Shown here: in pieces, positions 36,312-57,330 of the stretch
Layout of the letters: every line of letters starts with the position of its first letter
Numbering within the stretch: position 1 is the first letter of the stretch
Assembly: GCA_040755095.1 (NCBI GenBank)
Contig: JBFMBH010000005.1
Span: forward strand, 479-64,478
Origin: Thermodesulfobacteriota bacterium
Lineage (GTDB): Bacteria > Desulfobacterota > Desulfobulbia > Desulfobulbales > JBFMBH01
Direction of reading: 5' to 3'
Length of the DNA stretch: 64,000 bases
Program-made: the position numbers and the translations under genes
Notes under the pieces: model-generated
What the model saw: only the letters and a program-made list of their open reading frames with translations
The model's database searches: none
Told to the model about the DNA's origin: nothing

Positions 36312-36319
36312 CCTGAGCC

Positions 36320-38719: not shown

Positions 38720-39904
38720 CTACGCGAGATCCTTGTGACAGCCGATGCACAGCTCCTTCTTGGACGGCTTGCGCAGCCGGAATTCAATGCTGGCGCCATG
38801 GTCGGCATGACAGGAGTTGCAGGTGATCCGTCCGTCCTCCAGGGTGTTGTATTCCTCCGGGATGGTCATCCCTTCCCGGGGGTAGACGTTCACAGGATGG
38901 GAGAGGACGTCCTTGGCTTCCTTGTGGCAGGTGTAGCAGATGGTGATGTTGGTCTCGAGCTCACTCCGCAAAGGAGGATGGTCGTCCGGCTTGCTGGCCC
39001 GCGCTCGTGGCTCGGGGGCCGCGGCTGTCCTCACCGGGGGCGGCGCTCCCACGGCCAGGCGCACTGGCTGGTTGGCGGCGAAGCGGACCAGGTAGCGATC
39101 GCCGTTGCGCAGGATGGTGTGCTCAAGCTCGATCACCTCGCTGCCCGCCTCCGCCGCCACCTCGACCGGTGAGACCGAGGTGGCCGTGGAGAGCTCCATG
39201 GCCTGCGATTCGCTCCGATTGCCGAACATGTCCTGGGATGCCACCCGGAAGCTGTATGTGGTCTTGGCCTTGAGGCCGGACAGGAGCACTTCGTGCTTGA
39301 GGCTCAGGTCATTGTCCGTGGGGGACTCGTTGTCCATGGCGCCGACACCGTAGAGCACCCGACTGTCCGCCACCTCGTCGGTGCGCCAGGCAATGGTGGC
39401 CGAGTAGAAGACCCCTCGCCGCACCTCTTTGACCTTGAGATCAGCGATCCGGGGCGGCGTGTGGTCATTGACCAGGGGGGGCAGGTCCTCCAGAGGGGGC
39501 AGGTCGAGCTGCTCGCTCACCAGGCCGCCGTGGCCATTGCTGGCCTTGACATAGAGGACATCGTCCACATCCGCCGGCGGGATCACAAACACATGCTCGG
39601 GCTGCGCCAGACCGCTTTCTCCCAGCCAGCGCAGATTGCGGGGCATGTCCGTGGTGGCGCGGCCCCTGGCGCCCTTGGTAGCGGTCCGGGTGGGGGCCAG
39701 ATGGCAGACGTGGCACTCGCGCCGCAGGAACGGCAGATGGATGAAGGGCTTGGCCAAGCTCTCGTCGCATTCCTGCTTGTGGCATTCGTAGCACGCCTCC
39801 GGGTCGTTGGGATCAGCGGCCGGGGCGCTGTGGGCAGCGGGACCGAGGGCGGCCAGGGCAGCGGCCAGCCCGGTGGCCAGAACGAGGTACTTGGGAGCAG
39901 CCAT
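38720..39904 (-). CDS. Secreted pentahaem cytochrome c with central fibronectin-type-III-like domain
   Basis: Signal peptide MAAPKYLVLATGLAAALAALGPAAHSA. Haem motifs CYECH, CHVCH, CYTCH, CNSCH and CIGCH. The middle segment ...YSATIAWRTDEVADSRVLYG...LLSGLKAKTTYSFRVASQDMFGN is FN3-like. Confidence 0.85.
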   Translation of the reverse strand: MAAPKYLVLATGLAAALAALGPAAHSAPAADPNDPEACYECHKQECDESLAKPFIHLPFLRRECHVCHLAPTRTATKGARGRATTDMPRNLRWLGESGLAQPEHVFVIPPADVDDVLYVKASNGHGGLVSEQLDLPPLEDLPPLVNDHTPPRIADLKVKEVRRGVFYSATIAWRTDEVADSRVLYGVGAMDNESPTDNDLSLKHEVLLSGLKAKTTYSFRVASQDMFGNRSESQAMELSTATSVSPVEVAAEAGSEVIELEHTILRNGDRYLVRFAANQPVRLAVGAPPPVRTAAAPEPRARASKPDDHPPLRSELETNITICYTCHKEAKDVLSHPVNVYPREGMTIPEEYNTLEDGRITCNSCHADHGASIEFRLRKPSKKELCIGCHKDLA

Positions 39905-40269: not shown

Positions 40270-41718
40270 ATGCGCTCCTTCATCCTCCTTCTTGCGTTGG
40301 TGCTTGCTGCCTGTACCCCCGGTCCTGGCAAGCCTGGGCGTCAGGTGCCGCCGGCCGACGCCGCTGGCCTGGCCGTCTATCTCACCGCCTCGGAGCCGCT
40401 GGCCACGGAGGTTTCGTTCGAGCTCAATGGGCTCGCCCTCTTCAATGGCGTCGAATGGCTGCTCCTGGATCCGGGGCCCCAGACGATCAGCGCCCAGGCC
40501 GTGGGGGAGGGTCAGATGCTGTTGGGCTTTTTTGCGGTGCCGCCCGGGGATTACACCCGGCTGCGGGGCACCGTCGGCCCGGCTCGGGTCTCCGAACGGG
40601 GCGACGGCGTCCGCCTGGTGGGCCAGGCCGAGGAGCGGGAGCTGGGCTTTGAGGCCAAGATGCGGCTGGTGGCCGGTCAGCGGGCCTGCCTGCTGGTGGA
40701 CTGGCGGGTGCGCTCGTCTCTCCAGGACAAGGACTGGACCCCGGTCCTGACCGTGACGCCGCAGATGCCGGCCATGACCCGGGAGCTCCTCTATGTGGCC
40801 TGCGACGATATCGACACGGTATTCGTGGTGCGCATGGATACCAACCACGTGGTGGCCGCCTTTGGGGTCCGGGGCGGGCCCACTCAGCTGCGCTACGATG
40901 ACGCCGTGCCCATCCTCTATATACTGGCAAGAGAGACTCGCCTGATCACCGGCCACGACCCCTACGGCAACCGCCAGCTGTCGCGGGCCTTCCTGGGAGG
41001 GCTGCCCGAGCCCCGGTACTGGGATCTGTCCAGGGATGGCCGCTGGGCGTTCGTGACCGACACCGACCAGGCGCTCCTGCAGAAGATCGATGTCACCTCC
41101 GGCTTCGTGGCCCGCCAGCAGTCCTTGAGCCAGCGTCCGGGACGGGTGTTGTTTGTGGCCGAGGCGGAGTCGGGACGGCTGCGCCGGGAGCTGGTGGCGG
41201 TCGCCATGCCCCAGGCCCAGCTGGTGGCCTTCTTCGACCCCGAGACCCTGGAGGTGCTGGAGCCGGCCAGCCTGACGCCGGTCGGTGCCGGCGCCTTGAC
41301 CGGCGTTGACTCGGGCATGGAGCCCGGCCAGATGCTGATGGTGCAGGGCCTCCTCCATGTGGCGGATCGGTTGTCCGGCACCGTGACCATCTACGACCTC
41401 AACCGGGGGCGGCATCTGGCGCGGGTGGCTGTGGGCCTGGAGCCGGTGGCCCTGCTGGCCGGCAAGCAGGACCGCGTCTATGTCAGCCACGCCGGCAGCA
41501 GCAACGTCATGGCCCTGGCCCGGGGCCATCACGCGGTGCTCAAGGATGTGTTCGTGGGGCCGCAGCTGGGGGAGATGGCTCGCCACCTGCGGCGGGGCAG
41601 CCTCTATGTGGCGGTGCAGGGGACCCAGGCCGTGGCGGTCCTGGATCTCAACTCCGACGCCCTGCGGGCGCAGATCCCCTTGCCGGGGCGGCCGGTCTCC
41701 CTGCTGGCCGTCGAATAG
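40270..41718 (+). CDS. Lipoprotein with N-terminal beta-sandwich (DUF4382-like) and YVTN/YncE-like beta-propeller
   Basis: Lipobox LVLAAC. Repeated units such as LYVACDDIDTVFVVRMDTNHVVAAF, RWAFVTDTDQALLQKIDVTSGFV and LYVAVQGTQAVAVLDLNSDAL. Confidence 0.7.
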   Translation: MRSFILLLALVLAACTPGPGKPGRQVPPADAAGLAVYLTASEPLATEVSFELNGLALFNGVEWLLLDPGPQTISAQAVGEGQMLLGFFAVPPGDYTRLRGTVGPARVSERGDGVRLVGQAEERELGFEAKMRLVAGQRACLLVDWRVRSSLQDKDWTPVLTVTPQMPAMTRELLYVACDDIDTVFVVRMDTNHVVAAFGVRGGPTQLRYDDAVPILYILARETRLITGHDPYGNRQLSRAFLGGLPEPRYWDLSRDGRWAFVTDTDQALLQKIDVTSGFVARQQSLSQRPGRVLFVAEAESGRLRRELVAVAMPQAQLVAFFDPETLEVLEPASLTPVGAGALTGVDSGMEPGQMLMVQGLLHVADRLSGTVTIYDLNRGRHLARVAVGLEPVALLAGKQDRVYVSHAGSSNVMALARGHHAVLKDVFVGPQLGEMARHLRRGSLYVAVQGTQAVAVLDLNSDALRAQIPLPGRPVSLLAVE

Positions 41719-41838: not shown

Positions 41839-42939
41839 CTAGTCCTTGTTGGTATGACACTTGAAGCAGCCCGAGTCTGCAGCTGCGCCGGCATTGTGGG
41901 CGTTCATGGTGGCGTAGTCCCAGCGGAGCAGGTCGTCGAAGGATGTGCCGTGTGCCCGGTGGCAGGAGATGCAGGTGACGATGGCCTGGCCGGCCACCGC
42001 CGGATTGACCGCTGCGGCCAGGTTGACCACGCCCACCGGCGCCTCGGCGTTGTCGACGTACGCGGCGTACTCGGAGCCGGTGGCGTCGCTCAGGTCGAAG
42101 TCCACCGGATGCCGCAGCCAGGGCGCGCCGAAGGTGGAGTCAACGCCGGTGTTGCCGGTGCCGCTGTGGAAGTTGCCGTGGCACTCGGCGCACAGGAAGC
42201 TGATGGTGCTCTTGTCCACCGAGGCCAGCTCGTCGCTGATCCGGTCCTTGCCCTTGTACTTGTTGCGATCAACGCTGGTCTCGTTCTCCCAGTCGTTGTC
42301 CTCGACGCCGGTGATCCCCATCAGGAAGCGGAAGCTCTTGCCCACGGTGCTGCCGTCGAGGGTGGCATCATCGGCATGGTGGGCGCCGGAGATGTCCTGG
42401 AAGTCGTCCGCTGCCGCATGCTTGCCGTGGCAGCCATAGGAGCCGGCGCAGGTCAGCTGGCTGGCCCAGGAGGCGGCACCGCCCGCCACCTGCGAGCCGC
42501 CGGTGGGGGTGAAGGTGGCGTCGTTGCTCCAGCCGGGGGGCGTCAGGCCAAAGGCCGCGCCATCCTGGGTGGCGATCCCCTTGACGTTGTGGCCCTTCTT
42601 GTCGACATCACCCTGGGCGTCCGCCACCCAGTAGAAGTTGCCGCCGGCCAGCACGCTGGTCACCGGCGAGGGGGCAGCGTCGGTCTTCAGGACCAGGGGG
42701 ATGTTGCTGGAGCCGCCCAGGAGCGCCGTGCCGCTGTGGCAGCCGACGCAGTCGCCCCGGGTCAGGGCCCGTTGCGGGGTGTTTGTGCCGTCATTGGCCA
42801 TGCTGGCGCCGTTCTGGGAGTTGTGCATGGTGTGACAGTCCGAGCAGACGCCGGTGACCCGGGCCTCGGCATTCCCGCTCAAGCCGCAGAATGCCAGCGC
42901 GAAACCGAAGGCAACGATGGAACCATACAGCTTCTTCAT
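41839..42939 (-). CDS. OmcS-like hexahaem cytochrome c, paralogue 2
   Basis: Signal peptide MKKLYGSIVAFGFALAFCGLSGNAEA. Motifs CSDCHTMHNSQ, CVGCH, CAGSYGCH, CAECH, WLRHP, CISCHRAHG and C-terminal GCFKCHTNKD. GAAGGAG RBS before ATG 42939. Confidence 0.85.
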   Translation of the reverse strand: MKKLYGSIVAFGFALAFCGLSGNAEARVTGVCSDCHTMHNSQNGASMANDGTNTPQRALTRGDCVGCHSGTALLGGSSNIPLVLKTDAAPSPVTSVLAGGNFYWVADAQGDVDKKGHNVKGIATQDGAAFGLTPPGWSNDATFTPTGGSQVAGGAASWASQLTCAGSYGCHGKHAAADDFQDISGAHHADDATLDGSTVGKSFRFLMGITGVEDNDWENETSVDRNKYKGKDRISDELASVDKSTISFLCAECHGNFHSGTGNTGVDSTFGAPWLRHPVDFDLSDATGSEYAAYVDNAEAPVGVVNLAAAVNPAVAGQAIVTCISCHRAHGTSFDDLLRWDYATMNAHNAGAAADSGCFKCHTNKD

Positions 42940-43607: not shown

Positions 43608-44408
43608 CTACATCATCATGGCGTGGGGATCGATATGGCAGGAAAGGCAGTTGGTGGGGTTGGCAATGCTCTTGTCATGGGGATTGCCGTGGCAGGTCAG
43701 GCACTCCGGCAGCAGGTCCGGGCCGTGGCCGAAGCGGTGGCAGAACACGCAGATGAAGGCACCGTGCTTGGTCTTGTTGGTCCGCTGCAGCTCCAGCTGC
43801 TCCGGGTGACAGCCGCCACAGTACGTGGACGGGATGTCCGTTGACCAGGCCACATGGGTCGGCTCATGGGGCTGGTGGCAGCGTAGGCAGGCGCCGTAAT
43901 CCATGCCCTCCACATGGGCCTGGTGGCATTTGAGGCAGGTCTTGAAGGTGCGGTGCACCGGGTGGCAGAAGGAGCAGTCCACCTCGGCATGGGCGCTGGG
44001 GAATTCCTGCATGGCGTCCCCGGGGTAGGGGTGGCAGGACAGGCAGGCCGGCTTGTTGTCGCTATCCTCCCGGAAGGTGATGAGCAGGGGCCGGTGGGGA
44101 TCCTGGTGGCAGGTCAGACACTCGGCCCGGGCGGCGAAGTGCTTGTTGGCAGCGGGCTGGTGGCAACGGGAGCATGCGGGCACCGCGTTCGTGCCCCGGG
44201 GGGGGTGCTCCACGTGGCAGTCCAGGCAGGTGACCCGGGTGCGGTGGCGCTCGCCGTCCTCGAAGATCGCCTTCTGCTGGTCGGGATGGCACTTCTTGCA
44301 GTCGGCGTTGGTCAGGACAGGGGGCTGGGCCCCGGCCTCCAGCACGGCAACCAAGAGACTTGCTGCCAGCACGCCCGCGATACCTGCCCAATAACCTTTG
44401 CTGTCCAC
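43608..44408 (-). CDS. Dodecahaem cytochrome c (12 CxxCH in 266 aa; poly-c7/c3-like)
   Basis: GTG start after GGGAGG. N-terminal hydrophobic segment WAGIAGVLAASLLVAVLEAGA. Twelve CxxCH motifs spaced about 15-25 aa apart. Confidence 0.9.
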   Translation of the reverse strand: MDSKGYWAGIAGVLAASLLVAVLEAGAQPPVLTNADCKKCHPDQQKAIFEDGERHRTRVTCLDCHVEHPPRGTNAVPACSRCHQPAANKHFAARAECLTCHQDPHRPLLITFREDSDNKPACLSCHPYPGDAMQEFPSAHAEVDCSFCHPVHRTFKTCLKCHQAHVEGMDYGACLRCHQPHEPTHVAWSTDIPSTYCGGCHPEQLELQRTNKTKHGAFICVFCHRFGHGPDLLPECLTCHGNPHDKSIANPTNCLSCHIDPHAMMM

Positions 44409-44470: not shown

Positions 44471-45445
44471 CTACTTCTGATGGATCTCGAAAACCTGCAC
44501 GCGCTTGTTGAAGGTGTCAGCGACGATGACCCGGCCGTAGGCGTCCACGCAAACGTCGGACGGGTAGGCCAGCCACCCCCGTCCCGAGCCCTGGCCGCCG
44601 AACTCGAACAGATAGCGTCCCTTCAGGTCGTAGACGTTGACCCCATGCCGCAAATAGTCCGCCACGTAAATGCGGCCGGCCCGGTCGTCCACCGCCACCC
44701 CCCGGGCTCGGGCGAGCTTCCCTGACGAGCCACCCTTCTCGCCGAACCGGAACAGGAAGCGCTCCTCGGCGTCGTAGACATAGACCCTGCCCATGCCCTC
44801 ACTGAGGAGGTAGAGATTCCCTTCCCGGTCGGTGTCCAAGGCGATGATATCCGCCACCTGGCGGCCGCCCCGCACCGTGTCCGTGGGGGCGATGACGTGG
44901 AGAAACCGGCCCTCCCGGTCCAGGACCAGGGCACCCGGATAGTTGCTGCCAGCCATGATGAGGCGGCCTCGGGATCCTTCCACCAGATGGCGGGGGGAGA
45001 ATTCGCTGGCGCCCTCGAAGCCGTCCAGGGTCATTTCCCGCACCTTGATGAAGGCGCCGTCATAGACCTTGATCGCCGGCAGCTCGCCCTGGGCCAGAGG
45101 GCCCCGGCCGGCGTAGAGCAGGCCGTCACCGGTCACCAGCACCGCCGAGGCCCGCCCCAGCTCGCGCCCCTCTCCCAGGGTGAAGGTCGGAAAGTAGTCG
45201 GCTCCGGCATAGAGGGCGATCCGGCCGCCGGCCCCGGAATGCAGGACGTAGAGCTCCTCGGCCTTGCGGTCGTAATGGAGGACCGAGGTGTAGCCCAGGG
45301 CCATGCTGTTGGCATCCACCTCGAGGACCTTGATCACCGCCGTCTCCACATTGGCTGCCGTGGTGGCGGCGGCGCCGGCTGGCTGGGGCCAGAGCGTGGC
45401 CAGGAGCAGGATCAGGAGGAGGACAGGGCTCAGCATGGCGCCCAT
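44471..45445 (-). CDS. Secreted NHL-repeat six-bladed beta-propeller protein
   Basis: Signal peptide MGAMLSPVLLLILLLATLWPQPAGA. NHL units such as ARGVAVDDRAGRIYVADYLRHGVNVYD and YPSDVCVDAYGRVIVADTFNKRVQVFE. No SD-like sequence before either candidate ATG (45445 or 45436). Confidence 0.85.
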   Translation of the reverse strand: MGAMLSPVLLLILLLATLWPQPAGAAATTAANVETAVIKVLEVDANSMALGYTSVLHYDRKAEELYVLHSGAGGRIALYAGADYFPTFTLGEGRELGRASAVLVTGDGLLYAGRGPLAQGELPAIKVYDGAFIKVREMTLDGFEGASEFSPRHLVEGSRGRLIMAGSNYPGALVLDREGRFLHVIAPTDTVRGGRQVADIIALDTDREGNLYLLSEGMGRVYVYDAEERFLFRFGEKGGSSGKLARARGVAVDDRAGRIYVADYLRHGVNVYDLKGRYLFEFGGQGSGRGWLAYPSDVCVDAYGRVIVADTFNKRVQVFEIHQK

Positions 45446-45496: not shown

Positions 45497-45522
45497 AAGG
45501 GCGGCCCGAACGGGCCGCCCTT
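45497..45522 (-). terminator. Intrinsic terminator/attenuator between OmcS-like gene 3 and the downstream NHL gene
   Basis: AAGGGCGGCCC-gttc-GGGCCGCCCTT, followed on the minus strand by CTTGTTTCTT. Confidence 0.7.
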
Positions 45523-45565: not shown

Positions 45566-46675
45566 CTAGTCCTTGTTGGTGTGGCAGCGGAAGCAGCCGG
45601 TGTCGCTGTTGGCGCCGCCGCCGCCGGCGATCATGTTGTCGTAGTTCCAGCGTAGGAGGTCCGCGTTGTCGGAGCCGTGGGCCCGGTGGCAAGAGATGCA
45701 CAGCACGATGCCGTCCGCCGGAGTGGCGGGAAGGGCAGCGGTGCCGCGGGTCGTGGCGCTCAACGGCGCGCCTACCGGAACTTCCTCGTCATAGGCGTTG
45801 GTGCCCGCCGTGCCGTAGGAGGCATAGGAATCCCAGGCCTGGGAGGCGTTGCCGAGCCGGAAATCGGTGGGATGACGCAGCCAGGGAGTGCCCCCGGGGT
45901 CAGCCTGGCGGGTGGTGTTCAGGTTGGTGTTGGCCGAGGCGCCGACGCTGTGGAACAGGCCATGGCATTCGCCGCACAGGTAGCTGATGGTGGTGGTGTC
46001 CTCGTAGCCGGTGATGGTGCCGGATCCCACGGTGGCGCTGTTGCCGTTGATGCCGTCGTAGGCATTGCCGTCCGTGTCGCCGAAGCCCTTGTAGCTGGCC
46101 GAGGACTCCGTGCCGTCGATGCCCGCCAGCAGCCGGAAGCCGACCGCGGTGTCGTTGTGGTGACCGCCGGCGATGGCCACGGTCTCGTTGGCGTAGCTGT
46201 GGTTGCCGTGGCAGCCGAAAGAGCCGGCGCAGGTCAGCCGGTTGGTGCCCCAGCCGGCGGCGTTGGCGGGCAGGCCTGCAGCCACCGCCATGTAACCGGG
46301 TGGGGTATTGGCCAGCACGCCGTCCTGGGCGCCGGTACCGTTGACGTTGTGCTTGGTGTTGTCGGCGTTGGCGCTGTTGATGTAGCCGCCGGGCAGGACT
46401 GTGGCGGTCGAAGCGGCGTCACCCCAGATCGCCGGCGCATCGACGCTGGTCAGCCGGTCGGCGGCGTTGTCCTGCTTGTGGCAGCCGGCACAGGTGTCAA
46501 TGGTGAGCGAGTCGTTGGTGGCGGTGGTGTTGCCCATCACCGTGCCGTTCTGGCTGTTGTGCATGGTGTGGCAGTTGGCGCAGGGGCCGGTGACCTTGGC
46601 ATCGGCGCTGCCACCCAGGCCAGCCAGCACAGCGGCCGCACCGACCGCAATCAGGGTGCCGTACAGCTTCTTCAT
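45566..46675 (-). CDS. OmcS-like hexahaem cytochrome c, paralogue 3
   Basis: Signal peptide MKKLYGTLIAVGAAAVLAGLGGSADA. Motifs CANCHTMHNSQ, CAGCH, CAGSFGCH, CGECH, WLRHP, CISCHRAHGS and C-terminal GCFRCHTNKD. AAGGAGG RBS before ATG 46675. Confidence 0.85.
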   Translation of the reverse strand: MKKLYGTLIAVGAAAVLAGLGGSADAKVTGPCANCHTMHNSQNGTVMGNTTATNDSLTIDTCAGCHKQDNAADRLTSVDAPAIWGDAASTATVLPGGYINSANADNTKHNVNGTGAQDGVLANTPPGYMAVAAGLPANAAGWGTNRLTCAGSFGCHGNHSYANETVAIAGGHHNDTAVGFRLLAGIDGTESSASYKGFGDTDGNAYDGINGNSATVGSGTITGYEDTTTISYLCGECHGLFHSVGASANTNLNTTRQADPGGTPWLRHPTDFRLGNASQAWDSYASYGTAGTNAYDEEVPVGAPLSATTRGTAALPATPADGIVLCISCHRAHGSDNADLLRWNYDNMIAGGGGANSDTGCFRCHTNKD

Positions 46676-46903
46676 GGTCTTGCCTCCTTGTTGTTTCGTT
46701 TTACGGGTTCTTGGGCCAGACTGCGGGACTACAGTTCGGCATCCCAGTCGTGGACTCCGGCCCGATGTCTTGTCTCCGTATGCTGCTCTACTACCCCATT
46801 TGCCATTTGCCTGCAAGGGAATTCGCCCTGCCATTCATGGTCGCCACTGTACGCGATCGGAAAGGGAAAAGATATACGGCGGCTGGCGTATTTTGTTCTG
46901 GCC

Positions 46904-46938: not shown

Positions 46939-47091
46939 CGCCAGGGCTGGCTTGCGCACTGCATTTCGCGGTAGCCGGACCGGGGCAAATATGGTAAGGG
47001 AATGCCCGGATCCAAGGCCCCGGGCCGGTTTTGGCGTCAGGCCAGGGGGGCGACAGCCGAGCGGCCACTCGCTGCTCACAAGGAGATCTCG

Positions 47092-49254
47092 TTGAAGTCC
47101 AGACAGACCTCGGTTGTCGGCCTTCTCGCCATGCTGGGGGCGGCATGCGGGCTTGGCGTTTCCTGGCGCCAGGCCGGGGCCGGGCCGGTGGCCATCAACG
47201 CCACCCTGGACTACTCCGAGACGCGGGGGGACAGGGACAATGACAACGCCTTCCGCCAGACCTTCCAGGTGAGCCTGGCGGATGATATCGCCGTCACCGA
47301 TACCGTAAGCCTCACCCCGGGCTTCCGGCTCAACAACGACTCCAGCGGCGAGCGCAGTGGCGCCTACGCCATCGACCCCAACCTGGGGCTGGCCATGAAT
47401 ACCGACCTGTTCAGCATGAACGGGTCGTACTCCACGACCACCCGCAAGTCCTCGGGGGATCAGCCCAAGACCTTCTCCCAGGCCTGGGACGTCACCTGGG
47501 CCAGCCGCTGGGACCAGCCCTGGCCCTCCTTCCCGGTGCCGGTGCCCTCGGTGCGCGTCGCCTACGGCGGCAACACCACCGAATCCGGGGACGACCTGAC
47601 CGGCCGCAGCTCCTTTGTCACCGGCACGGTGACCGAGGAGTACGACATCTCCATCTTCCAGCTCGCCTACCGCTTTTCCCGGAACATGAACTGGGACGAG
47701 ATCGACGAGATCACCGGCACCAACGACACCCATGATTTCAGTGTCGACGCCAGCGACCGCTATCTGGACGACCGGGTGCAGCTGTCCATGAGCCACCAGA
47801 CCACCCTGGACCGCCGGGTCACCGAATTCAAGGGCGGGGCCGGCAAGGTGATCGAGGAGGGCTTCACGTTGTCGGAGGACGCCTTTGCGGGGCAGGACCC
47901 TCGACCCGCAGAGGAAAATATCTTCATGGACCTCAGCCTCGCCAACGGGCTCGTGAACAGGACGCTCACGGATCGGGTCGTGAACATTCGAGCGGGGGTC
48001 GATACCCCTGGCGCCATTAGCGGGGAGGAGTTCTGGAATATCCTCGTGGAGGTGCCAGCGGCGTTACAGGAGGTCTCCCGCATCTCTCTCTGGCTGGCCG
48101 AGGAGCTTGCGCTGGAGCCGGAAGGTCTGGACACGGAAGGCGACTACAGCTTTGACGTCTACGGGGGCATGACCCAGAATGGTCCCTTCCACCGGCTGAC
48201 GGGGGCGGATGGGCTCGGCGTGTATCAGTCAGGCGTTTTCCCGTCGGCCGGCGGCCTGCCGTTGGGGGGAGGGCTGCGGCCCCGTTTCCTGATCGACCTG
48301 CCCGCTGGGGCGTGGAATGGGGAGAACTTCCTCAAGGTGGTGTGCCGGATTGAGAAGCCAGTCTCCGTGGCGGCCTGGATCAGCGAGGTGACGCTTTCCC
48401 ATGTGCGCACCCTCACCACCGACGACGAGAAGGACGTCAATATCAGCAACACCTACAAGACCGGTCTGACCATGAACGTCGTCCCGGCCATGGACTGGCG
48501 CTTCTCCACCGGCCTGGTGCACACCCTGCGGGAAAGCTCGCCCGGGGGCGAGCGCACGGACCTGACCCACAACATGAACCTGTACTGGACCCCCAACCGT
48601 TATTTCCGGCCAGTGACGGCGTTCAACCGCAGTATCTCCTCGGGGGACGAAGAGGATACCCTGGAGAACCGCTCCTACAGCATGCGGGTGGCCTCCATGC
48701 CCCTGGATGCCCTGTCCACCTCCCTGGGCTTCACCCGCACCGAGGGCTACACCAACCAGGCCCTGGAGACCATCGGGGATGCCCTGTTTCTGAGCCTGGA
48801 CTCCCAGATCCTCCCCGATTTGTCCGCCAGCCTGGCCGCTTCCTCCACCAAGACGACCAACCGGGTCAGCGGTGCCACGGCCTCGGCCATGCAGGTGGAT
48901 CTGACCGGCAACATGCGGGTGACGCCCCGGCTCACGGCGGACGCCACCCTGGAATTCAGCGAGGCGGACGAGGAGCCCTTCGGCTATGGCGCTGCCCTGT
49001 CCTGGCGGCCGACGGATGTTCTGGCCTGCACCTTGGACTACGAAGGGGGCAACGAAAGCACCATCACCTTGTCTCCGGCCGTGCGGCTGAGCCGGGAGCT
49101 GCAGCTGACCGGCTCATTCGTCCACAGTGACGAGGACGATCTGTTGTCCGTGCAGTCCAAATGGCTGCTCAACGAGCTCATGACCCTGGACCTCCGCTAC
49201 CGGTGGCGGGAGGAGGAATGGGCCTGGAACGTGCGCTTGACAGCAGGCCTGTGA
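47092..49254 (+). CDS. Putative outer-membrane beta-barrel protein with a large inserted soluble domain
   Basis: TTG 47092 lies 6 nt after AAGGAG. Signal peptide KSRQTSVVGLLAMLGAACGLGVSW. Both ends are rich in short alternating polar/hydrophobic strands with Asn/Asp/Gly/Ser turns (LDYSETRGDRDNDNAFRQTFQVSL...; ...LTGSFVHSDEDDLLSVQSKWLLNELMTLDLRYRW). No family recognised by eye. Confidence 0.6.
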   Translation: MKSRQTSVVGLLAMLGAACGLGVSWRQAGAGPVAINATLDYSETRGDRDNDNAFRQTFQVSLADDIAVTDTVSLTPGFRLNNDSSGERSGAYAIDPNLGLAMNTDLFSMNGSYSTTTRKSSGDQPKTFSQAWDVTWASRWDQPWPSFPVPVPSVRVAYGGNTTESGDDLTGRSSFVTGTVTEEYDISIFQLAYRFSRNMNWDEIDEITGTNDTHDFSVDASDRYLDDRVQLSMSHQTTLDRRVTEFKGGAGKVIEEGFTLSEDAFAGQDPRPAEENIFMDLSLANGLVNRTLTDRVVNIRAGVDTPGAISGEEFWNILVEVPAALQEVSRISLWLAEELALEPEGLDTEGDYSFDVYGGMTQNGPFHRLTGADGLGVYQSGVFPSAGGLPLGGGLRPRFLIDLPAGAWNGENFLKVVCRIEKPVSVAAWISEVTLSHVRTLTTDDEKDVNISNTYKTGLTMNVVPAMDWRFSTGLVHTLRESSPGGERTDLTHNMNLYWTPNRYFRPVTAFNRSISSGDEEDTLENRSYSMRVASMPLDALSTSLGFTRTEGYTNQALETIGDALFLSLDSQILPDLSASLAASSTKTTNRVSGATASAMQVDLTGNMRVTPRLTADATLEFSEADEEPFGYGAALSWRPTDVLACTLDYEGGNESTITLSPAVRLSRELQLTGSFVHSDEDDLLSVQSKWLLNELMTLDLRYRWREEEWAWNVRLTAGL

Positions 49255-49408
49255 TGTGCTCTACTCGCCCCGAAGTCTGCGCTGCTGCGTCCAGTCCAGG
49301 GCCGGCGGCCACGGATCCGGAACCGATTGTGCTGTGTGGGGCGACGGCATTGGCGGCAGGCGGCCGTGCTCCGGACCGGCGGCATTCTGGCAGAGAGGAC
49401 TTTTCCAT

Positions 49409-50041
49409 ATGGCTGGCTGGTGGCCGATCCGGCGGCAGGTGCGGAAGGCGGGCGGCAGGGGATGGCAGGGGGCCGTGGCGGCTCGCCTGGGGGGACTTCT
49501 GCTGGTGGTCCTGGTGGCCGGTTGCAGCTCCCATGCCCTGACCTATTATGTCCGGGAGGGCGCTGACCTGACCTTCATCAAGAAGGTGGCGGTCATGCCC
49601 CTGGCCAACAACACCAAGGAGAAGTTTGCCGCCGACCGGGTGCGCAACATCGTGCTGACCCAGGTTCTGGTGGACAGCCTGTTCGACGTCACCGAGACTG
49701 GCCAGCTGGAGAAGATCCTGGAGGAGGAGGCCGGCAAGGCGGATGCGCCTCTGGATGAGGCCCTGGCCCGCCGGCTCGGCAAGCGGTTGTCCGTACAGGC
49801 GTTTCTCCTGGGATCGGTGGATGCCTACGACGAGGAGCGCAAGGGCAACTACTCGTATCCCGTCGTTGCCATGACCTTGAAGCTGGTGGATGCCGAGACC
49901 GGTCTCATTCTGTGGCAGGCCAGCGGCTCTTACAGCGGCTACAGCAGCTGGAGCCGCATCCTCGGCACCCAGGGCAGGGATCAGTCGGCGGTGACCTTTC
50001 GTCTCGTGCGGTCGCTTCTGGCCAGTCTCAGCGGCGACTAG
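49409..50041 (+). CDS. Lipoprotein, PelC/CsgG-N/LpoB/DUF799-like alpha/beta fold, paralogue 1
   Basis: Lipobox LVAGC. KKVAVMPLANNT...DSLFDVTE...LGKRLSVQAFLLGSVDAY...VAMTLKLVDAETGLILWQA. Confidence 0.7.
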   Translation: MAGWWPIRRQVRKAGGRGWQGAVAARLGGLLLVVLVAGCSSHALTYYVREGADLTFIKKVAVMPLANNTKEKFAADRVRNIVLTQVLVDSLFDVTETGQLEKILEEEAGKADAPLDEALARRLGKRLSVQAFLLGSVDAYDEERKGNYSYPVVAMTLKLVDAETGLILWQASGSYSGYSSWSRILGTQGRDQSAVTFRLVRSLLASLSGD

Positions 50042-50098
50042 TCTGGCCTTCGCTCCGTGAGGACGCATCGTCCAGCAGGCCTGCCGTCCCACCGCCTC

Positions 50099-51640
50099 AT
50101 GAGCCTCGGCTTCTCCCCCGGTGCCTGGCCCCGCCTCCTGATCCTCCTCTTCCTGCTGGGCCTCCTGCCGGCAGCCCCGGCGCCGGCCGGTGCCGCCAGC
50201 GGCAAGGTGGCGCTTCTGCCCTTCGACGATCTGTCCCGGGGCGCCAATTCGGTGGACCTGGAGATGACCACCCAGGTCGCCGATCTCCTGACGGTGTCCG
50301 GAATCAACGTGGTGGATGCCCAGGCGGTGCGGGCGTATCTCGCGACCAACCGCGTGCGCCACACCGGGATGATCGATCTCTTCAACACCATGGGCATGCG
50401 GGAGGCCCTGGGTGTGGACTGGATCCTTACCGGCACGGTGACCCACCGCCGCCCCGAGCCGCAGCCGGCCCTGGGCCTGTCCCTTCTCCTGGTGGACGCC
50501 CACACCGGCAAGGCCGTCTGGGCCTGGAACGAGAGCCTGGCCGCCACCGAGCTGGTGAAACCCCTGGGAATCGACGCTGTCACCAGTCTGGCCGCGATCA
50601 CCGATCTGGTCCTGGCCCGGGTGCCGTTCCAGTTTCCGGAGCCCGGCGAAGCCCTGGTGGACCTGCCCATTCCGCCATACTCGGTGGAGAGCTTCGATCT
50701 GAGCTCCCGGTTCGTCGCCGGCAATGGCCGGATGGAGTGCCGGGTGGGCTTCCGTTTTGATGAGGAGCCGCCCACCGACGTCTTCCTGAAGCTGGGGGGC
50801 AAGCGCATCAGTCTGGTGTCCATGGCCAAGGAGAGCGGCACCTACTGGGCGAGCTGGCAGGCGCCGGAGGCAGAGGGGCGCTATTCGGTCGCCACGGTTC
50901 TGCGGTGGAAAGGCCGGCGGGAGGAGTCCAAGTTCCTGGCCTCCTACCGGGTGGTGAACGAGCCGCCGACCGTGTCCCTGCGCTTCGGCAACGGCGTGCC
51001 CCTGGGGGATTCCGGCGTCATCGCCTTCCGCTCCTTCCTGAGCATCAGCCCGGTCGTCAACAAGACCGCTCCCGTGGCTTCGTTCCGCATCCAGATCGAA
51101 GACCCGAAGACCGGCGCCTTCCTCATGGACTTCAAAAGCATCGAGAGCCTGCCCGAAGCCATGGTCTGGCGCGGTGCCGGTGATCAGGGGCCTCTGGGCT
51201 CCGGCTACTACCGGCTCATCCTCACCGTCACCGATGTCATGGGCAACGAGATCGCGGATTCGGCGGAGCTGTACCTGGGCAAGAATCAGCCCCGGGTGCT
51301 GCCCGCCATGGAGCGTCTCGAAGACGGGAGGGTTCAGCTCCACCTCATGGCGGTCCCCGATCCCCAGACCGGCGAGATGGAGCCGGTGCCGGTGAAGTAC
51401 TGGCAGCTGCGGGTCACGGATCGGGAGCGCAACTTCCTTCTGGAAGAGGAGGGAGAGACGCTGCCGGCCACCGTCACGCTGGATCCCGGCGCCGAGACGG
51501 TCTTTCTGGTCTCCTACCTGGTGCGGGATGTCCTGGGCAACGAGCGCCACGCCCGCAGCGAGACCGTGGAGCTGCCCGTTACCGGCGGCGGCGAGGACCA
51601 AGACAAGAAGGAGACCGATGTCTGGCATGAGGAGTTCTAG
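50099..51640 (+). CDS. Secreted protein: the same alpha/beta fold (paralogue 2) + three Ig-like/FlgD-Ig-like beta-sandwich domains
   Basis: Signal peptide ...LLILLFLLGLLPAAPAPAGA. GKVALLPFDDLS...GINVVD...LGVDWILTGTVTH...LSLLLVDAHTGKAVWAW. Later MVWRGAGDQGPLGSGYYRLILTVTDVMGNE (FlgD-Ig-like). Confidence 0.7.
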   Translation: MSLGFSPGAWPRLLILLFLLGLLPAAPAPAGAASGKVALLPFDDLSRGANSVDLEMTTQVADLLTVSGINVVDAQAVRAYLATNRVRHTGMIDLFNTMGMREALGVDWILTGTVTHRRPEPQPALGLSLLLVDAHTGKAVWAWNESLAATELVKPLGIDAVTSLAAITDLVLARVPFQFPEPGEALVDLPIPPYSVESFDLSSRFVAGNGRMECRVGFRFDEEPPTDVFLKLGGKRISLVSMAKESGTYWASWQAPEAEGRYSVATVLRWKGRREESKFLASYRVVNEPPTVSLRFGNGVPLGDSGVIAFRSFLSISPVVNKTAPVASFRIQIEDPKTGAFLMDFKSIESLPEAMVWRGAGDQGPLGSGYYRLILTVTDVMGNEIADSAELYLGKNQPRVLPAMERLEDGRVQLHLMAVPDPQTGEMEPVPVKYWQLRVTDRERNFLLEEEGETLPATVTLDPGAETVFLVSYLVRDVLGNERHARSETVELPVTGGGEDQDKKETDVWHEEF

Positions 51641-52304
51641 TTCGGCCAGCACCGGCTGCTGGCCGCCCGGGTCGAAAAGCCGCTCCGGGGGGACCCCTGG
51701 CGGTTCGCATCCAGGTCGGGTACACTGGCTCGTCACCGTTCTTCTGGCGTGTCTCGCCGCCGGCTGCGGCAAGGCCCAGCACAGTCTGGGCCTGGTGGCC
51801 GCGGGGGGGGAGGGGATCTGCCGGGTGGCGGTGCTGCCCTTCCGGGACCAGGGCAAGGTGCCCTTTGGCGGGCACGTGGTCCAGCGGACGTTCACCGCGG
51901 AGCTCATCGCCAGCGGCCGCTTCGATGTAGCCCTGGAGGGTGAGGTGCTGGCCTTTTTCCGGGAGAACCGGCAGCTGCCCCAGGCGACCCTGTCCCGGGA
52001 CTTCTACATCAAGATGGGCCAGACCATGGGCGTGGACGCCATCGTGGCGGGCACGGTGCTCGGCATGAGCGAAGGCTCCGAGGGCCGGGATATGGTGGTG
52101 CCAGAGGTGGCCTTCTCCCTGGAGCTGATCCGGATCCGGGATGGCAAGCCCCTGGTGGTGACCCACCACCACCGTGCCGGGGATGAGTATCGATGGCTCA
52201 TGCACGTCGGGGTGGTGCAGACCATTTCGGAGCTGGTGAGCCGGATGAGCAAGGAGGCGATCGAGGAATGGCGTATCTTGGGCTTCGAGGGTTGTCGGTT
52301 GTGA
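51618..52304 (+). CDS. Lipoprotein, same alpha/beta fold, paralogue 3
   Basis: Lipobox CLAAGC. CRVAVLPFRDQG...SGRFDVAL...MGVDAIVAGTVLGM...AFSLELIRIRDGKPLV. AAGGAG RBS; the start overlaps the upstream stop by 23 nt. Confidence 0.7.
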   Translation: MSGMRSSSSASTGCWPPGSKSRSGGTPGGSHPGRVHWLVTVLLACLAAGCGKAQHSLGLVAAGGEGICRVAVLPFRDQGKVPFGGHVVQRTFTAELIASGRFDVALEGEVLAFFRENRQLPQATLSRDFYIKMGQTMGVDAIVAGTVLGMSEGSEGRDMVVPEVAFSLELIRIRDGKPLVVTHHHRAGDEYRWLMHVGVVQTISELVSRMSKEAIEEWRILGFEGCRL

Positions 52305-53992
52305 AGCGGGCCAGCTTGCTGGGCCTCGTGACGGTGCTGGTGCTCTGGGGCTCCCTGGCACAGGCGGTGTGGCCCTTCGGGGAACGGCACCTCCTGGTTC
52401 TCAATGGCGCCGGGCACAGCAAGGCGGATTTTCTGCAATTCTGGGAGCAGTGGAAGGAAGAGGACAGCCCGGTTCCCGACAGCCCGGATTTCTGGATCGA
52501 CTGGCTGCTGTTTTATCAGGAGGCCGAGCAGATGGAGCTGGGCGATGCCCCGGCGGTGCAGGCCAAGCTGTTCACCTTCCTCAAGGTGCGGGCCCTCATG
52601 CAGCTGCGCCAGGACGAGGTGACCAGCAGGATGGCCGCCGTCGATGAGGAGCGCCTCTGGCAGCGCTATTTGCAGGACGAGGCGCCCCTGTACAAGATCG
52701 AGAGCGTGCTCATCGCCGACCAGGCGGCTGCTGGCCGCTTCGCTGAGCTGGCGCGGGCTGGCCGCCCGTTCGCCGAGGTCGTCACCGATCCCAGCCTCGG
52801 CCTGGCCGAGCCGCCCAAGGTGATCTCGTCGGACTGGCTGCGGAAGAGCAAGGTGCCCGAGACCTACCGGGAGGATCTGGCGAAGGCCGAGCTCGGCTCC
52901 GTGCTCGGTCCCCTGTTCTGGGAGCCCAAGAAGACCTACTACCTGGTGCGGAAGGTAGAGCAGCAGGCTGGCAGCCAAGAGGACTTCCAGAGGATCCGCA
53001 AGGACATCGAGGAGCGGCTCTTCAAGGAGGAGGACGGCCGCCTGACCAGAGACCTCCTGGTCCGTCTGATGAAGGAGTACGAGGTGGTGACCCACGACGA
53101 CCGGATCGAAGCCCTGCCCATGAACGGCGGCTCCCAGGAGCAGCTGAGCGCCGTGGTGGTGGAGATGAAGGGCGGCAGGACGGTCACCGGCGGTGAGCTC
53201 GTGCAGATGGTGATGCGGGATCTGTCCATGCGGATGCGGCCCAATGCCCAGGGCTCTTTCGACATGGTGCATGGCGATTTCAATGACGCCAAGCGCCGGG
53301 TGCTCATGGATTACCTGGGGGCGGAGCTGACGGTTCGGGCCGCCCTGGACCGTCACTATGAGCAGAAGCCGCCCATCAAGGATGTGTTCGATTTTTACCG
53401 CCAGCGGCGCATGATCCTCGAGCTGAAGAACCGGCTGTTCCGCACCCAGGTGGAGGTCAGCGACCAGGAGGCCCAGGCCTTCTACCAGGCCAACCAGCAG
53501 CTGTTCACCCACCCCGCCTCCCTGGAGCTCGCCATCCTGAGCACCCGGGACGAGAAGCTGGCCGATTTCCTGCGCAAGGAGCTTCTCTCGGGCAAGGATT
53601 TCTTCGAGGTGGCCAACCATGTGGTGGCCGGCGGGGTGAATCCGACCAATGTGCTGGTGAGCGATCTCGATCCGGCGATGGTCGAGGCCCTGTCCGGAGT
53701 GGCCGAGGGGGCGCAGGTGGGCCCGGTGAAGATCGGCGAGGATACCCACTTCATCAAGCTTATCCGCCGGCGGGAGTCGGTGGTGCGGCCCTTGGACGAA
53801 GTCAAGCACATGATCACCAGGAAGCTGCACGAGGAGCGGATCCAGGAGAAGGAGGAGGCCTTTCGGCAGAAGCTGCGGGCGGTCTCCAAGATCGAGGTGG
53901 ATGACGGCCAGTGGCAGGAGGTGGTCCGCACCCTGAAGGCCCAGGAGGCGGCCCGGCAACAGGAGAAGGACAAGCCGGCAAAGGGCAGTTGA
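52301..53992 (+). CDS. SurA/PpiD-like periplasmic chaperone with parvulin-type peptidyl-prolyl isomerase domain
   Basis: GTG 52301 overlaps the upstream stop (GTGA); the alternative is ATG 52268. Signal peptide VKRASLLGLVTVLVLWGSLAQA. C-terminal rotamase-like ...FFEVANHV...VSDLDPAMVEALSGVAEGAQVGPVKIGEDTHFIKLIRRR. Confidence 0.75.
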   Translation: MKRASLLGLVTVLVLWGSLAQAVWPFGERHLLVLNGAGHSKADFLQFWEQWKEEDSPVPDSPDFWIDWLLFYQEAEQMELGDAPAVQAKLFTFLKVRALMQLRQDEVTSRMAAVDEERLWQRYLQDEAPLYKIESVLIADQAAAGRFAELARAGRPFAEVVTDPSLGLAEPPKVISSDWLRKSKVPETYREDLAKAELGSVLGPLFWEPKKTYYLVRKVEQQAGSQEDFQRIRKDIEERLFKEEDGRLTRDLLVRLMKEYEVVTHDDRIEALPMNGGSQEQLSAVVVEMKGGRTVTGGELVQMVMRDLSMRMRPNAQGSFDMVHGDFNDAKRRVLMDYLGAELTVRAALDRHYEQKPPIKDVFDFYRQRRMILELKNRLFRTQVEVSDQEAQAFYQANQQLFTHPASLELAILSTRDEKLADFLRKELLSGKDFFEVANHVVAGGVNPTNVLVSDLDPAMVEALSGVAEGAQVGPVKIGEDTHFIKLIRRRESVVRPLDEVKHMITRKLHEERIQEKEEAFRQKLRAVSKIEVDDGQWQEVVRTLKAQEAARQQEKDKPAKGS

Positions 53993-57307: not shown

Positions 57308-57330
57308 CCCCGAGGAAGGAGACTCCGACC

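Follow-up and report, generated by a model that had tools for sequence, protein, structure and literature searches.

The gene at positions 45566-46675 of the window, by which we mean the whole stretch of 64,000 nucleotides that was analysed, raises the question of whether a cytochrome of the OmcS nanowire type is encoded outside Geobacter. A sequence-only reading had answered that it is, pointing to landmark motifs of OmcS, to an extra histidine behind the first haem motif, and to the size and haem count of the protein. It was right about the position outside Geobacter, as the source MAG is that of a Thermodesulfobacteriota bacterium. The source lineage is uncultured, of the sulfate-reducer type and high in GC (67%). 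OmcS-like proteins outside Geobacter are already known (PMC10553843, PMC10954620, PMC12545173).

A secreted cytochrome with OmcS landmarks

The open reading frame (45566..46675, minus strand) encodes a protein of 369 aa, here called OmcS-like cytochrome 1, which starts with MKKLYG, ends with CFRCHTNKD-stop, contains five CXXCH motifs and one CX5CH motif, and is identical to NCBI MEW6218292.1 from a MAG labelled Thermodesulfobacteriota bacterium. Its first 26 residues (MKKLYGTLIAVGAAAVLAGLGGSADA|K; 46598..46675, minus strand) form a Sec-type signal peptide that is cut after ADA|K at about aa 26, leaving a mature protein of about 343 aa. Residues 2-24 are a single helix in the AF2 model, and the signal peptide has no lipobox. 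Apart from this cleavable signal peptide the sequence shows no membrane anchor, and a catalytic CXXCK motif is lacking. We conclude that the product is a secreted c-type cytochrome. The gene is preceded by the ribosome-binding site AAGGAGG (46683..46689, minus strand), 7 nt 5' of the ATG, and followed by an intrinsic terminator-like hairpin (45497..45522, minus strand) with an 11-bp stem of which 9 pairs are GC and with a T-rich tail after it. The hairpin lies 44 nt past the stop codon, which suggests that the gene is transcribed as a unit by itself. Upstream of it, a sigma-70-like promoter was looked for and not found.

All landmark strings quoted in the sequence-only reading are indeed present in the minus strand of 45566-46675, and the OmcS counterparts that it had given (CEGCHTMHNS, LRHP, CLSCHRAH and CNKCHAKD) were confirmed against PDB 6EF8 and a Geobacter locus. 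CANCHTMHNSQ corresponds to aa 32-42 and includes, by position and alignment, the haem-1 motif with the extra His, C32-A-N-C35-H36-T-M-H39 (46559..46582, minus strand). H39 is the counterpart of OmcS His16 (H41 of the precursor), with which it shares an alignment column. Further on follows W265-L-R-H268-P (aa 265-269; 45869..45883, minus strand), where H268 aligns with the His of OmcS LRHP. CISCHRAHG (aa 326-334) holds the haem-5 motif C326-I-S-C329-H330-R-A-H333 (45677..45700, minus strand), equivalent to C328-LS-C331-H332-RA-H335 of OmcS. The haem-6 motif C361-F-R-C364-H365 (45581..45595, minus strand) ends four residues before the C-terminus, within GCFRCHTNKD-stop (aa 360-369), so that haem sites occupy both extreme ends of the mature protein, as they do in OmcS.

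Remote homology to OmcS

In a single-sequence phmmer search of the PDB, cytochrome 1 matched OmcS with E=0.23, level with irrelevant pilins. Since this is not significant, a family profile was needed. A profile of 31 clade members (see below), searched against 177,635 PDB sequences, matched OmcS (6ef8_A) with E=9.3e-22 and 81 bits; the second-best match was 19 orders of magnitude weaker. Profile positions 28-342 aligned with OmcS 8-348, with sites 1-5 and LRHP in order, and the non-haem blocks GG.F.WV, GHN, YR.L, LRHP and CHRAH were collinear. A joint alignment of the two clades placed all six haem sites, the C-terminal sixth included, in common columns. In BLASTP, cytochrome 1 was 23-27% identical to OmcS, OmcT and the GSU2501-like protein in alignments of about 340-400 columns, which is near full length. 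The alignment to OmcS and OmcT proposed as a check of the sequence-only reading thus returned homology over nearly the whole length with the same haem order.

The haem-free AF2 monomer model of cytochrome 1 (pLDDT 78.5, pTM 0.77) retrieved a single PDB entry in Foldseek, again 6ef8_A (E=1.2e-4, probability 1.00). The structural likeness was modest (TM 0.41, rmsd 11 Å), the model being without haems. Pfam and NCBIfam contain no OmcS-specific model. Only Paired_CXXCH_1 scored above the cut-off for all three paralogues of the window described below, and Cytochrome_C7 was barely above it for the third paralogue only; matches to c3, NapC, NrfH, MtrC and DmsE-type families were sub-threshold. We conclude from these profile and fold comparisons that cytochrome 1 is a genuine but remote homologue of OmcS. 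The CX5CH clade itself has no solved filament, G. sulfurreducens OmcS being all that the profile search of the PDB yielded.

A sister clade with CX5CH at haem site 3

The six haems counted in the sequence-only reading stood up as six aligned sites, but only five of them are canonical CXXCH motifs. The sixth is the CX5CH sequence C149-AGSFG-C155-H156 (46208..46231, minus strand), which aligns with haem-3 CSSCHDPH of OmcS. It is a putative haem site, haem binding being assumed from the alignment with CSSCH of OmcS haem 3; if site 3 were empty, the haem chain would be broken. CX2-5CH motifs are mentioned for the OmcS-like clade of Desulfurivibrio alkaliphilus (PMC12545173), and the table of that paper counts comparable D. 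alkaliphilus proteins as "5x". The term CX5CH was found in no paper in our literature search.

Judged by alignment, cytochrome 1 falls into a large clade, sister to that of OmcS, whose proteins have about 365 aa and carry CX5CH at haem site 3. Five CXXCH plus CX5CH were found in all 120 clade members checked, CX5CH in none of 120 proteins of the OmcS clade. Within these 120 clade members the motif reads CAGxxGCH or, rarely, CSGxxGCH, TMH is kept throughout (120/120), lengths range from 341 to 419 aa, and 110 have 3-6 residues after the last CXXCH. The 120 best relatives of OmcS, on the other hand, are 390-470 aa long and 54-94% identical to OmcS, and 114 of them have six CXXCH motifs. C32, C35, H36, T37, M38 and H39 are invariant in 122 sequences, and so are C326, S328, C329, H330, H333 and R342; the two longest conserved blocks of the clade coincide with the segments that hold the donor His (30-42) and haem 5 (324-345). 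At 98% or more, the two clades have ten His columns in common, H39/H16 and H330/H332 among them.

The clade comprises about 589 clusters at 50% identity (E<=1e-30) and spans Desulfobulbia, Desulfuromonadales, Thermodesulfobacteria, Nitrospirota and others, with members in bins labelled Thermodesulfobacteriota, Nitrospirota, Deferribacteres, Aquificota and Chloroflexota. Genomes of Desulfurivibrio, Desulfobulbia and Desulfofervidaceae contain members 39-47% identical to cytochrome 1, and its closest relative among the GTDB species-representative genomes reaches only 47%. This size and taxonomic spread support a broader reading, which we put forward tentatively and hold to be possible: it may be the CX5CH clade, and not OmcS of Geobacter itself, that represents the widespread, perhaps ancestral form of the OmcS-type nanowire, with a shared barrel-like/PPIase assembly machine, a CX5CH-bound third haem, partly re-wired axial His and up to three paralogous wires in the organism of the window.

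Paralogues and neighbouring genes

Three OmcS-like paralogues are encoded in the window, all on the minus strand (45566-46675, 41839-42939 and 17935 to about 19065), and C..CHTMH, WLRHP and CHRAHG are kept by all three, as the sequence-only reading had claimed for the TMH His. OmcS-like cytochrome 2 (41839..42939, 366 aa), identical to NCBI MEW6218289.1, has the layout of cytochrome 1, with CAGSYGCH. OmcS-like cytochrome 3 (17935..19065, about 376 aa) has six CXXCH motifs and CANSCH, a deviating C-terminal tail (CHSTKDGI) and an apparently weak signal peptide. It is a member of a divergent subclade, and its best local match is a protein with seven CXXCH motifs from a Desulfofervidaceae MAG (L005_11210, 40% identity). 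A five-CXXCH candidate for the third paralogue at 38720-39904 was rejected, since the cytochrome encoded there is unrelated and contains an FN3-like domain. At least two OmcS-like paralogues were present in 26 of 75 loci. Together with the three paralogues of the window, this suggests functional specialisation, and it cannot be taken for granted that each of the three copies in this genome serves as a major filament subunit.

Directly 3' of the cytochrome 1 gene lies a gene for an NHL-repeat beta-propeller protein of 324 aa (44471..45445, minus strand; Pfam NHL 1.4e-12), whose product matched the NHL protein directly upstream of Geobacter omcS at 99.5% in hhalign; NHL homologues adjoin clade members in 20 of the 37 long loci, that is, those of at least 18 kb. 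It is followed by a 12-haem c7/c3-type cytochrome of 266 aa (43608..44408, minus strand; motifs and Pfam). Beyond cytochrome 2 are a 482-aa lipoprotein without Pfam match (40270..41718, plus strand) and a 394-aa five-haem cytochrome with a central FN3-like domain (38720..39904, minus strand; motifs and Pfam). The lipoprotein is possibly a beta-propeller, an assignment that is tentative because its hhalign match (76.8%) to the propeller protein after the Geobacter GSU2501-like gene is weak and covers 100 columns only.

Divergently from the cytochrome 1 gene, on the plus strand, begins a series headed by a gene for a probable outer-membrane barrel of 750 aa (47002..49254; weak KdgM porin match). 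BLASTP did not match its product to the 718-aa protein encoded at the Geobacter omcS locus, but the profile comparison did (hhalign 96.3%, E=1.6e-9, 590 columns), and homologues occupy the equivalent position in loci L003 and L004. Next come an LpoB/CsgG-like lipoprotein (49256..50041; Pfam LpoB 2.6e-8), which matched the Geobacter LpoB-like gene product in BLASTP (9e-12) and was found in 31/37 long loci, and a conserved 527-aa protein of unknown family without Pfam match (50057..51640), with homologues at the equivalent position in L003 and L004 and in 28/37 long loci; hhalign of the latter against the Geobacter omcS-locus part gave no match. A second, smaller LpoB-like lipoprotein (51528..52304), with its true start codon probably 3' of 51528, precedes a 599-aa protein of the PPIC-type peptidyl-prolyl isomerase family (52193..53992; Pfam Rotamase_2 8e-17), homologues of which are present in L003 and L004 and in 31/37 long loci. 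The series continues with a 26-haem cytochrome of 674 aa (54099..56123; identified by motifs, in 35/37 long loci), a 16-haem cytochrome of 401 aa (56102..57307; motifs) and a second NHL-repeat propeller protein (57130..58206; sequence matches). The gene order of this series recurs in L003 and L004, and in 30 of the 37 long loci at least two module genes lie within 10 kb of the cytochrome.

Shen et al. are said to have described, in Cell Chem Biol in 2025, an omcS-companion cluster with PPIase and 26-haem genes in Geobacter. From the gene content and the homologies above, the module consisting of the NHL, barrel-like, LpoB-like, PPIase and 26-haem genes is best described as a biogenesis cluster of the omcS-companion type (Geobacter GSU2493-2500/2505 region), partly homologous to the omcS flanks. 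Geobacter homology was computed here for the barrel-like, NHL and LpoB-like genes, and the likeness of the PPIase and 26-haem genes was taken from PMC12977616 and from the cluster reported for Shen et al. In PMC12977616 the eight-gene block GSU2500-2493 is tied to the maturation and secretion of OmcS. Furthermore, most OmcS/OmcE regions contain large beta-barrel proteins, and assembly by way of a porin-like structure has been suggested (bioRxiv 10.1101/2025.10.22.684050).

Proposed filament and alternative explanations

In OmcS, the neighbouring molecule supplies one axial ligand of haem 505, or haem 5 (Filman 2019, PMC6584659; PMC9473688). Filament formation by cytochrome 1 is regarded here as likely. 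As a whole, the following scheme has in our opinion a better than even chance of being correct: cytochrome 1 would be a Sec-exported, six-site OmcS-like cytochrome of the sister clade that polymerises into an extracellular haem wire. Haem would be attached in the periplasm, folding would then be aided by the PPIase protein, and the subunit would pass through a channel formed by the barrel and lipoprotein. Outside the cell, subunits would stack head to tail, with H39 completing the bis-His ligation of haem 5 (C326xxC329H330) in the next subunit, and with haem 1 at the N-terminus of one subunit pairing with haem 6 at the C-terminus of its neighbour to make a continuous, insulated haem chain. Such a wire could carry respiratory electrons, fed in by the neighbouring 12-, 16- and 26-haem cytochromes, to minerals or partner cells.

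The conservation of the putative donor and acceptor residues (H39 and the haem-5 block) is consistent with polymerisation, but they are found as well in members not shown to polymerise. The sequence-only reading had taken the TMH His as the mark of polymerisation, and here it went too far: OmcT and the GSU2501-like protein (locus L001) carry the identical His, so that it is a landmark of the family and not diagnostic of polymerisation. Cytochrome 1 might accordingly be a non-polymerising member of the OmcS family, either an electron carrier with six (or five) haems, soluble or attached to the cell surface, or a subunit in a minor, capping or adaptor role, that would act beside porin-cytochrome conduits or a filament made of another paralogue. 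The three paralogues of the window and the 26 of 75 loci with two or more fit this explanation, as do the count of only five canonical CXXCH motifs and the predicted periplasmic location of DA_765 of D. alkaliphilus (PMC12545173). However, in the OmcS fold a His three residues past that of haem 1 is out of reach of haem 5 in the same chain (inferred from the description of 6EF8, PMC6584659), and a strict monomer would therefore leave haem 5 lacking its sixth ligand; even so, both H39 and the haem-5 block are invariant. The tight and wide linkage of the gene to the barrel-like/PPIase module and its separate, strongly signalled transcription unit, as typical for an abundant structural protein, also argue against a non-polymerising form, which we regard as rather unlikely.

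Far less probably, the protein acts in the periplasm as a multihaem redox enzyme or as a quinol-linked electron-transfer subunit (NrfH/NapC/c3-like), with a function unrelated to nanowires. NCBI labels the protein a "cytochrome c3 family protein", and Pfam and NCBIfam give weak c3, NapC/NirT, NrfH and DmsE-type matches around single CXXCH motifs, but these all fall under the curated cut-offs and extend over 40-50 residues only. Neither a membrane anchor other than the cleavable signal peptide nor CXXCK is present, and among solved structures OmcS alone is related over the full length. That the likeness to OmcS reflects chance or the composition of a CXXCH-rich sequence, as the single-sequence phmmer result taken by itself might suggest, is refuted by the profile match, by the gap of 19 orders to the next PDB match and by the collinear non-haem blocks, with which the fold search and synteny independently agree.

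If the clade does polymerise into filaments, OmcS-type wires would not be specific to Geobacter; anaerobes of the sulfur and iron cycles, among them partners of methane-oxidising archaea, would commonly use them, and such wires could be recognised in genomes by the linked barrel-like/PPIase module. The idea of widely distributed OmcS wires has already been published (PMC10553843, PMC10954620, PMC12545173, PMC12977616), and what the present locus adds is therefore a clean and complete example, with three paralogues and the full module in a high-GC uncultured lineage. Two further points are that the clade invariably has CX5CH as its sixth haem site, which tends to be missed in published tables ("5x"), and that two axial-His positions are unlike those of OmcS.

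Comparison with known systems

Cytochrome 1 and OmcS (GSU2504; 6EF8/6NEF) are homologous over nearly their full length, with six sites in the same order. In both, T-M-H-N-S comes after haem 1, which lies a few residues past the signal-peptide cleavage site; OmcS and the clade share LRHP, CxSCHRAH and a last CXXCH 3-6 residues from the C-terminus. Both proteins match the Pfam domain Paired_CXXCH_1, and NHL, barrel-like and LpoB-like genes flank both Geobacter omcS and the cytochrome 1 gene. "OmcS-like", as it was first called, is thus justified in the sense of a true homologue, but one from a shorter sister clade with CX5CH and two distal-His swaps. The mature length given in the sequence-only reading (about 345 aa) was nearly exact, but the supposed fit to OmcS was not, as mature OmcS has 407 residues and cytochrome 1 about 343; the stretch from haem 5 to haem 6 is shorter in cytochrome 1. 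At site 3, CX5CH stands in place of the CXXCH of OmcS, the second Cys and the His being shifted three residues, to where OmcS has His147. OmcS His2 and His144 have no counterpart in the clade, which has the invariant H159, H172 and H173 instead, and the local haem geometry may therefore differ from that of OmcS. Of the two, OmcS is the one shown to polymerise. As an OmcS sensu stricto (a GSU2504 orthologue of the OmcS/OmcT/OmcJ clade) we would count a precursor of about 430 aa that has six canonical CXXCH motifs and is no less than about 55% identical to OmcS; with about 25% identity and its CX5CH site, cytochrome 1 was rejected as such.

The Geobacter GSU2501-type hexahaem cytochrome is likewise of the OmcS family and lies directly beside a propeller/barrel-like/lipoprotein/PPIase block; it always adjoins GSU2500-2493 (PMC12977616). 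It is the top Geobacter BLASTP match of window paralogues 1 and 3, but GSU2501 has six canonical CXXCH motifs and 437 aa, keeps the OmcS-type His2 and His144, and is only 23-27% identical to the window protein.

Closer in layout are DA_756 and DA_765 of D. alkaliphilus, described as "OmcS-like 5x" proteins of about 350 aa from a clade reported as sister to OmcS (PMC12545173). The OmcS-like genes of this organism were up by about 11 log2 units in ferrihydrite- versus nitrate-reducing growth, an AF2 oligomer of DA_402 was predicted to be a filament, and DA_765 was assigned to the periplasm by software (all PMC12545173). OmcS-like proteins have also been reported for the partner bacteria of ANME (PMC10553843). 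DA_756 and DA_765 share the layout of the window clade, a likening by published description and taxa, and cytochrome 1 fits this published OmcS-like sister clade (about 350 aa, five CXXCH, Desulfobulbia/Thermodesulfobacteria/Desulfuromonadales).

The tetrahaem OmcE (PDB 7TFS) is the more distant case. It has four haems, matches the clade profile weakly (E=0.039) with no significant sequence or fold match, and has the N-terminal motif CxxCHT-P-HN, similar to CxxCHT-M-HN of cytochrome 1; as in OmcS, one of its haems is ligated by a His of the neighbouring subunit (PMC9473688).

A secreted OmcS-family cytochrome

The cytochrome gene at 45566-46675 (minus strand; paralogue 1) is a single ORF with a product of 369 aa. 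Its best start codon is the ATG at 46675 with AAGGAGG 7 bases upstream; beyond the stop codon lies a strong hairpin terminator (45497-45522). At its N-terminus the product has a Sec signal peptide, MKKLYGTLIAVGAAAVLAGLGGSADA, with K as the next residue, and it contains exactly all the landmark strings that the sequence-only reading had quoted: CANCHTMHNSQ (aa 32-42), WLRHP (aa 265-269), CISCHRAHG (aa 326-334) and the terminal GCFRCHTNKD before the stop codon (aa 360-369). The counterparts given for OmcS, the hexahaem nanowire subunit of Geobacter sulfurreducens, agree with the sequence of PDB 6EF8 and with a locus from Geobacter. NCBI labels the protein, from a Thermodesulfobacteriota MAG, only as "cytochrome c3 family protein". 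Six haems had been proposed for it; six sites do align with OmcS, but only five are canonical CXXCH motifs, and the sixth is a candidate CX5CH site, C149-AGSFG-C155-H156 (46208-46231, minus strand).

A phmmer search with the single sequence of paralogue 1 against all PDB sequences returned OmcS at E=0.23, insufficient on its own, and only the generic Paired_CXXCH_1 scored above threshold in Pfam and NCBIfam for all three OmcS-like paralogues of the window. At least 714 relatives were retrieved by a word-indexed search. A profile of 31 relatives matched OmcS in the PDB with E=9.3e-22 (81 bits; profile 28-342 on OmcS 8-348), the second-best match being at E=0.0067, and the alignment was collinear over haem sites 1-5 and the non-haem blocks GG.F.WV, GHN, YR.L and LRHP. 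BLASTP with the proteins of a Geobacter omcS locus gave 23-27% identity over about 340-400 columns to OmcS, its relative OmcT and a GSU2501-like protein, and the AlphaFold2 model of the window protein (122 sequences; pLDDT 78.5, pTM 0.77) had 6ef8_A as its sole PDB match (E=1.2e-4, probability 1.00, TM 0.41). Together with a gene neighbourhood that is partly homologous to that of omcS, these matches establish the protein as an OmcS homologue and exclude chance; it almost certainly belongs to the OmcS superfamily. The sequence-only reading was right about the kinship with OmcS, about the landmarks and about a source other than Geobacter.

The other two paralogues that had been reported to keep the TMH histidine were also found; all three lie on the minus strand with C..CHTMH intact. 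Paralogue 2 (41839-42939) and paralogue 3 (17935-~19065, start codon uncertain) retain WLRHP and CHRAHG as well. Paralogue 3 is more divergent: it has seven motifs (six CXXCH and CANSCH) and a weak-looking signal peptide, MHDGRIMALAMGMVLCWESTSHA, followed by R, and its closest match is a 7-CXXCH protein that a Desulfofervidaceae MAG encodes next to a clade member. It groups with that protein in a further seven-motif subclade, outside the CX5CH clade.

The CX5CH clade and the OmcS clade

We compared OmcS and the window protein through the 120 best relatives of each. Those of OmcS had a mean length of about 437 aa, six CXXCH motifs in 114/120 and CX5CH in 0/120, whereas those of the window protein averaged about 375 aa and had exactly five CXXCH plus CX5CH (CAGxxGCH, rarely CSGxxGCH) in 120/120, with TMH after haem 1 again in 120/120. 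The window protein is not an OmcS orthologue.

In a joint alignment, ten His columns are common to both clades at ≥98%, including H39/OmcS-H16 and H330/OmcS-H332. At site 3, the family motif CAGTYGCH falls without gaps on OmcS CSSCHDPH; its second Cys and His lie three residues later than in OmcS and land on OmcS His147. Nothing in the window clade corresponds to OmcS His2 and His144; invariant H159, H172 and H173 are present instead. From these shared, shifted and replaced positions we conclude that the haem chain is probably conserved, with local re-wiring near sites 1 and 3.

The family comprises 1806 clusters (50% identity) at E≤1e-3 and 589 at E≤1e-30, and the nearest relative in species-representative genomes is 47% identical to the window protein. 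Some bins that contain clade members are labelled Chloroflexota/Anaerolineales, Aquificota or even Candidatus Methanoperedens (L016, L068, L069, L071), which may reflect horizontal transfer or binning contamination.

Gene neighbourhood and companion module

On one side of paralogue 1 lie genes for an NHL propeller (44471-45445), a 12-haem cytochrome (43608-44408), paralogue 2, a 482-aa lipoprotein (40270-41718) and a five-haem FN3-like cytochrome (38720-39904). Divergent from it are those for a 750-aa barrel-like protein (47002-49254), an LpoB/CsgG-like lipoprotein (49256-50041, plus strand), a conserved 527-aa protein (50057-51640), a second LpoB-like protein (51528-52304, plus strand), a PPIC-type prolyl isomerase (PPIase) protein (52193-53992), a 26-haem cytochrome (54099-56123), a 16-haem cytochrome (56102-57307) and another NHL protein (57130-58206). 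As called mechanically, the ORFs of both LpoB-like genes start so early that they overlap the upstream genes, and well before lipoprotein-like signals (e.g. LLLVVLVAGCSS); the true starts are therefore probably further downstream.

At the edge of the cluster are a LuxR-type response regulator (Response_reg + GerE; 37326-37979, plus strand) and a small protein whose match to the HAMP domain is weak and below threshold (38074-38613, minus strand). Two Response_reg/GerE regulators stand immediately upstream of the OmcS-like gene in the fetched locus L003, and a sigma-54 activator in L004 (Thiovibrio sp. JS02). Paralogue 3 adjoins a 2617-aa ORF with 13 CXXCH and GEVED and DUF7151 domains (7610-15463, minus strand) and the gene of an 879-aa protein whose repeats are of the NHL and InlB-B types (15477-18116, minus strand). 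These genes make up a second island of extracellular cytochromes, some 20 kb away from the main cluster. Between the islands (27703-37090) lie ordinary chromosomal housekeeping genes (exonuclease VII large subunit, tRNA-Pro at 29122-29198, a homocysteine-biosynthesis enzyme, chorismate mutase/prephenate dehydratase, TsaD and SurE), which argues that the cluster is chromosomal and on no obvious mobile element.

A scan of one genome per species found at least 576 stretches encoding clade relatives. The window, L003 and L004 share a gene order: OmcS-like gene, multihaem cytochrome, barrel-like protein, LpoB-like protein, ~500-aa protein, ~200-aa protein, PPIase and large multihaem cytochrome, every window gene of this order having a homologue in both loci. 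Of the 37 fetched loci of ≥18 kb, 30 carried two or more of four module genes (barrel-like, LpoB-like, 527-aa, PPIase) within 10 kb, and the 26-haem type was present in 35. In a Candidatus Desulfofervidaceae MAG (L005; 1-9656, 10001-12265), an OmcS-like pair, one of CX5CH and one of 7-CXXCH type, adjoins secretin, MshE-type ATPase and PilM genes in place of the barrel-like/PPIase module.

The fetched Geobacter locus runs NHL protein, omcS, omcT, large spermine-synthase-like protein, GSU2501-like hexahaem cytochrome, one-haem-site propeller, 718-aa protein and LpoB-like lipoprotein. With hhalign, the profile of the window barrel-like protein was matched to the 718-aa protein at 96.3% probability (E=1.6e-9, 590 columns) and the NHL proteins to each other at 99.5%, with cross-controls <5%; the LpoB-like proteins matched in BLASTP at 9e-12. 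By these matches, the window neighbourhood is homologous in part to the Geobacter omcS region. Shen et al. 2025 reportedly give the PPIase protein a part in folding, regard three cluster proteins as a channel and credit a propeller protein with control of morphology. The Geobacter eight-gene block GSU2500-2493, recently tied to the maturation and secretion of OmcS, is always found with the GSU2501 hexahaem cytochrome (PMC12977616).

Proposed polymerisation

The analysis shows paralogue 1 to be a secreted OmcS-family cytochrome whose six haem sites align with those of OmcS, whose donor-His and haem-5 blocks are invariant and whose companion module is conserved. Its subunits would mature in the periplasm, be exported via the barrel/lipoprotein complex with the assistance of the PPIase protein, and polymerise head to tail, H39 serving, as in OmcS, as the sixth ligand of the next subunit's haem 5. 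Eleven axial histidines of OmcS come from the same subunit and one, at haem 5, from the neighbour (PMC6584659; PMC9473688).

Two arguments go beyond homology. The longest invariant stretches in the clade, residues 30-42 and 324-345, coincide exactly with the donor-His and haem-5 segments and include the non-ligand residues T37, M38, N40, S41, Q42, D339, L341, R342 and W343. Since the OmcS fold keeps the haem-1-adjacent His out of reach of haem 5 in the same chain, the strict conservation of this His implies at least end-to-end association. Two points count against polymerisation: CX5CH is a candidate haem site, and the profile search found no filament structure from the window clade among PDB sequences. 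On balance, we lean towards polymerisation. The TMH histidine is less diagnostic than had been claimed.

Relation to known OmcS-like cytochromes

OmcS homologues outside Geobacter are already well documented. "OmcS-like" cytochromes were described in sulfate-reducing ANME partners and across Desulfobulbia, Thermodesulfobacteria and Desulfuromonadales (PMC10553843), and homologues in Geoalkalibacter and Anaeromyxobacter (PMC10954620). For Desulfurivibrio alkaliphilus, an "OmcS-like" sister clade with CX2-5CH motifs, an AF2 oligomer predicted to be filamentous and massive induction with ferrihydrite were reported, and the supplement lists DA_756 and DA_765 as "OmcS-like 5x" of about 350 aa (PMC12545173). 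The window protein is therefore a further member of a known group, and the novelty claimed for it was overstated. Our small additions are to align the invariant CX5CH explicitly to haem 3 of OmcS, to describe the re-wiring of the histidines and to put numbers on the linkage with the companion module. As far as the published description goes, DA_756 and DA_765 have the same layout as the window clade.
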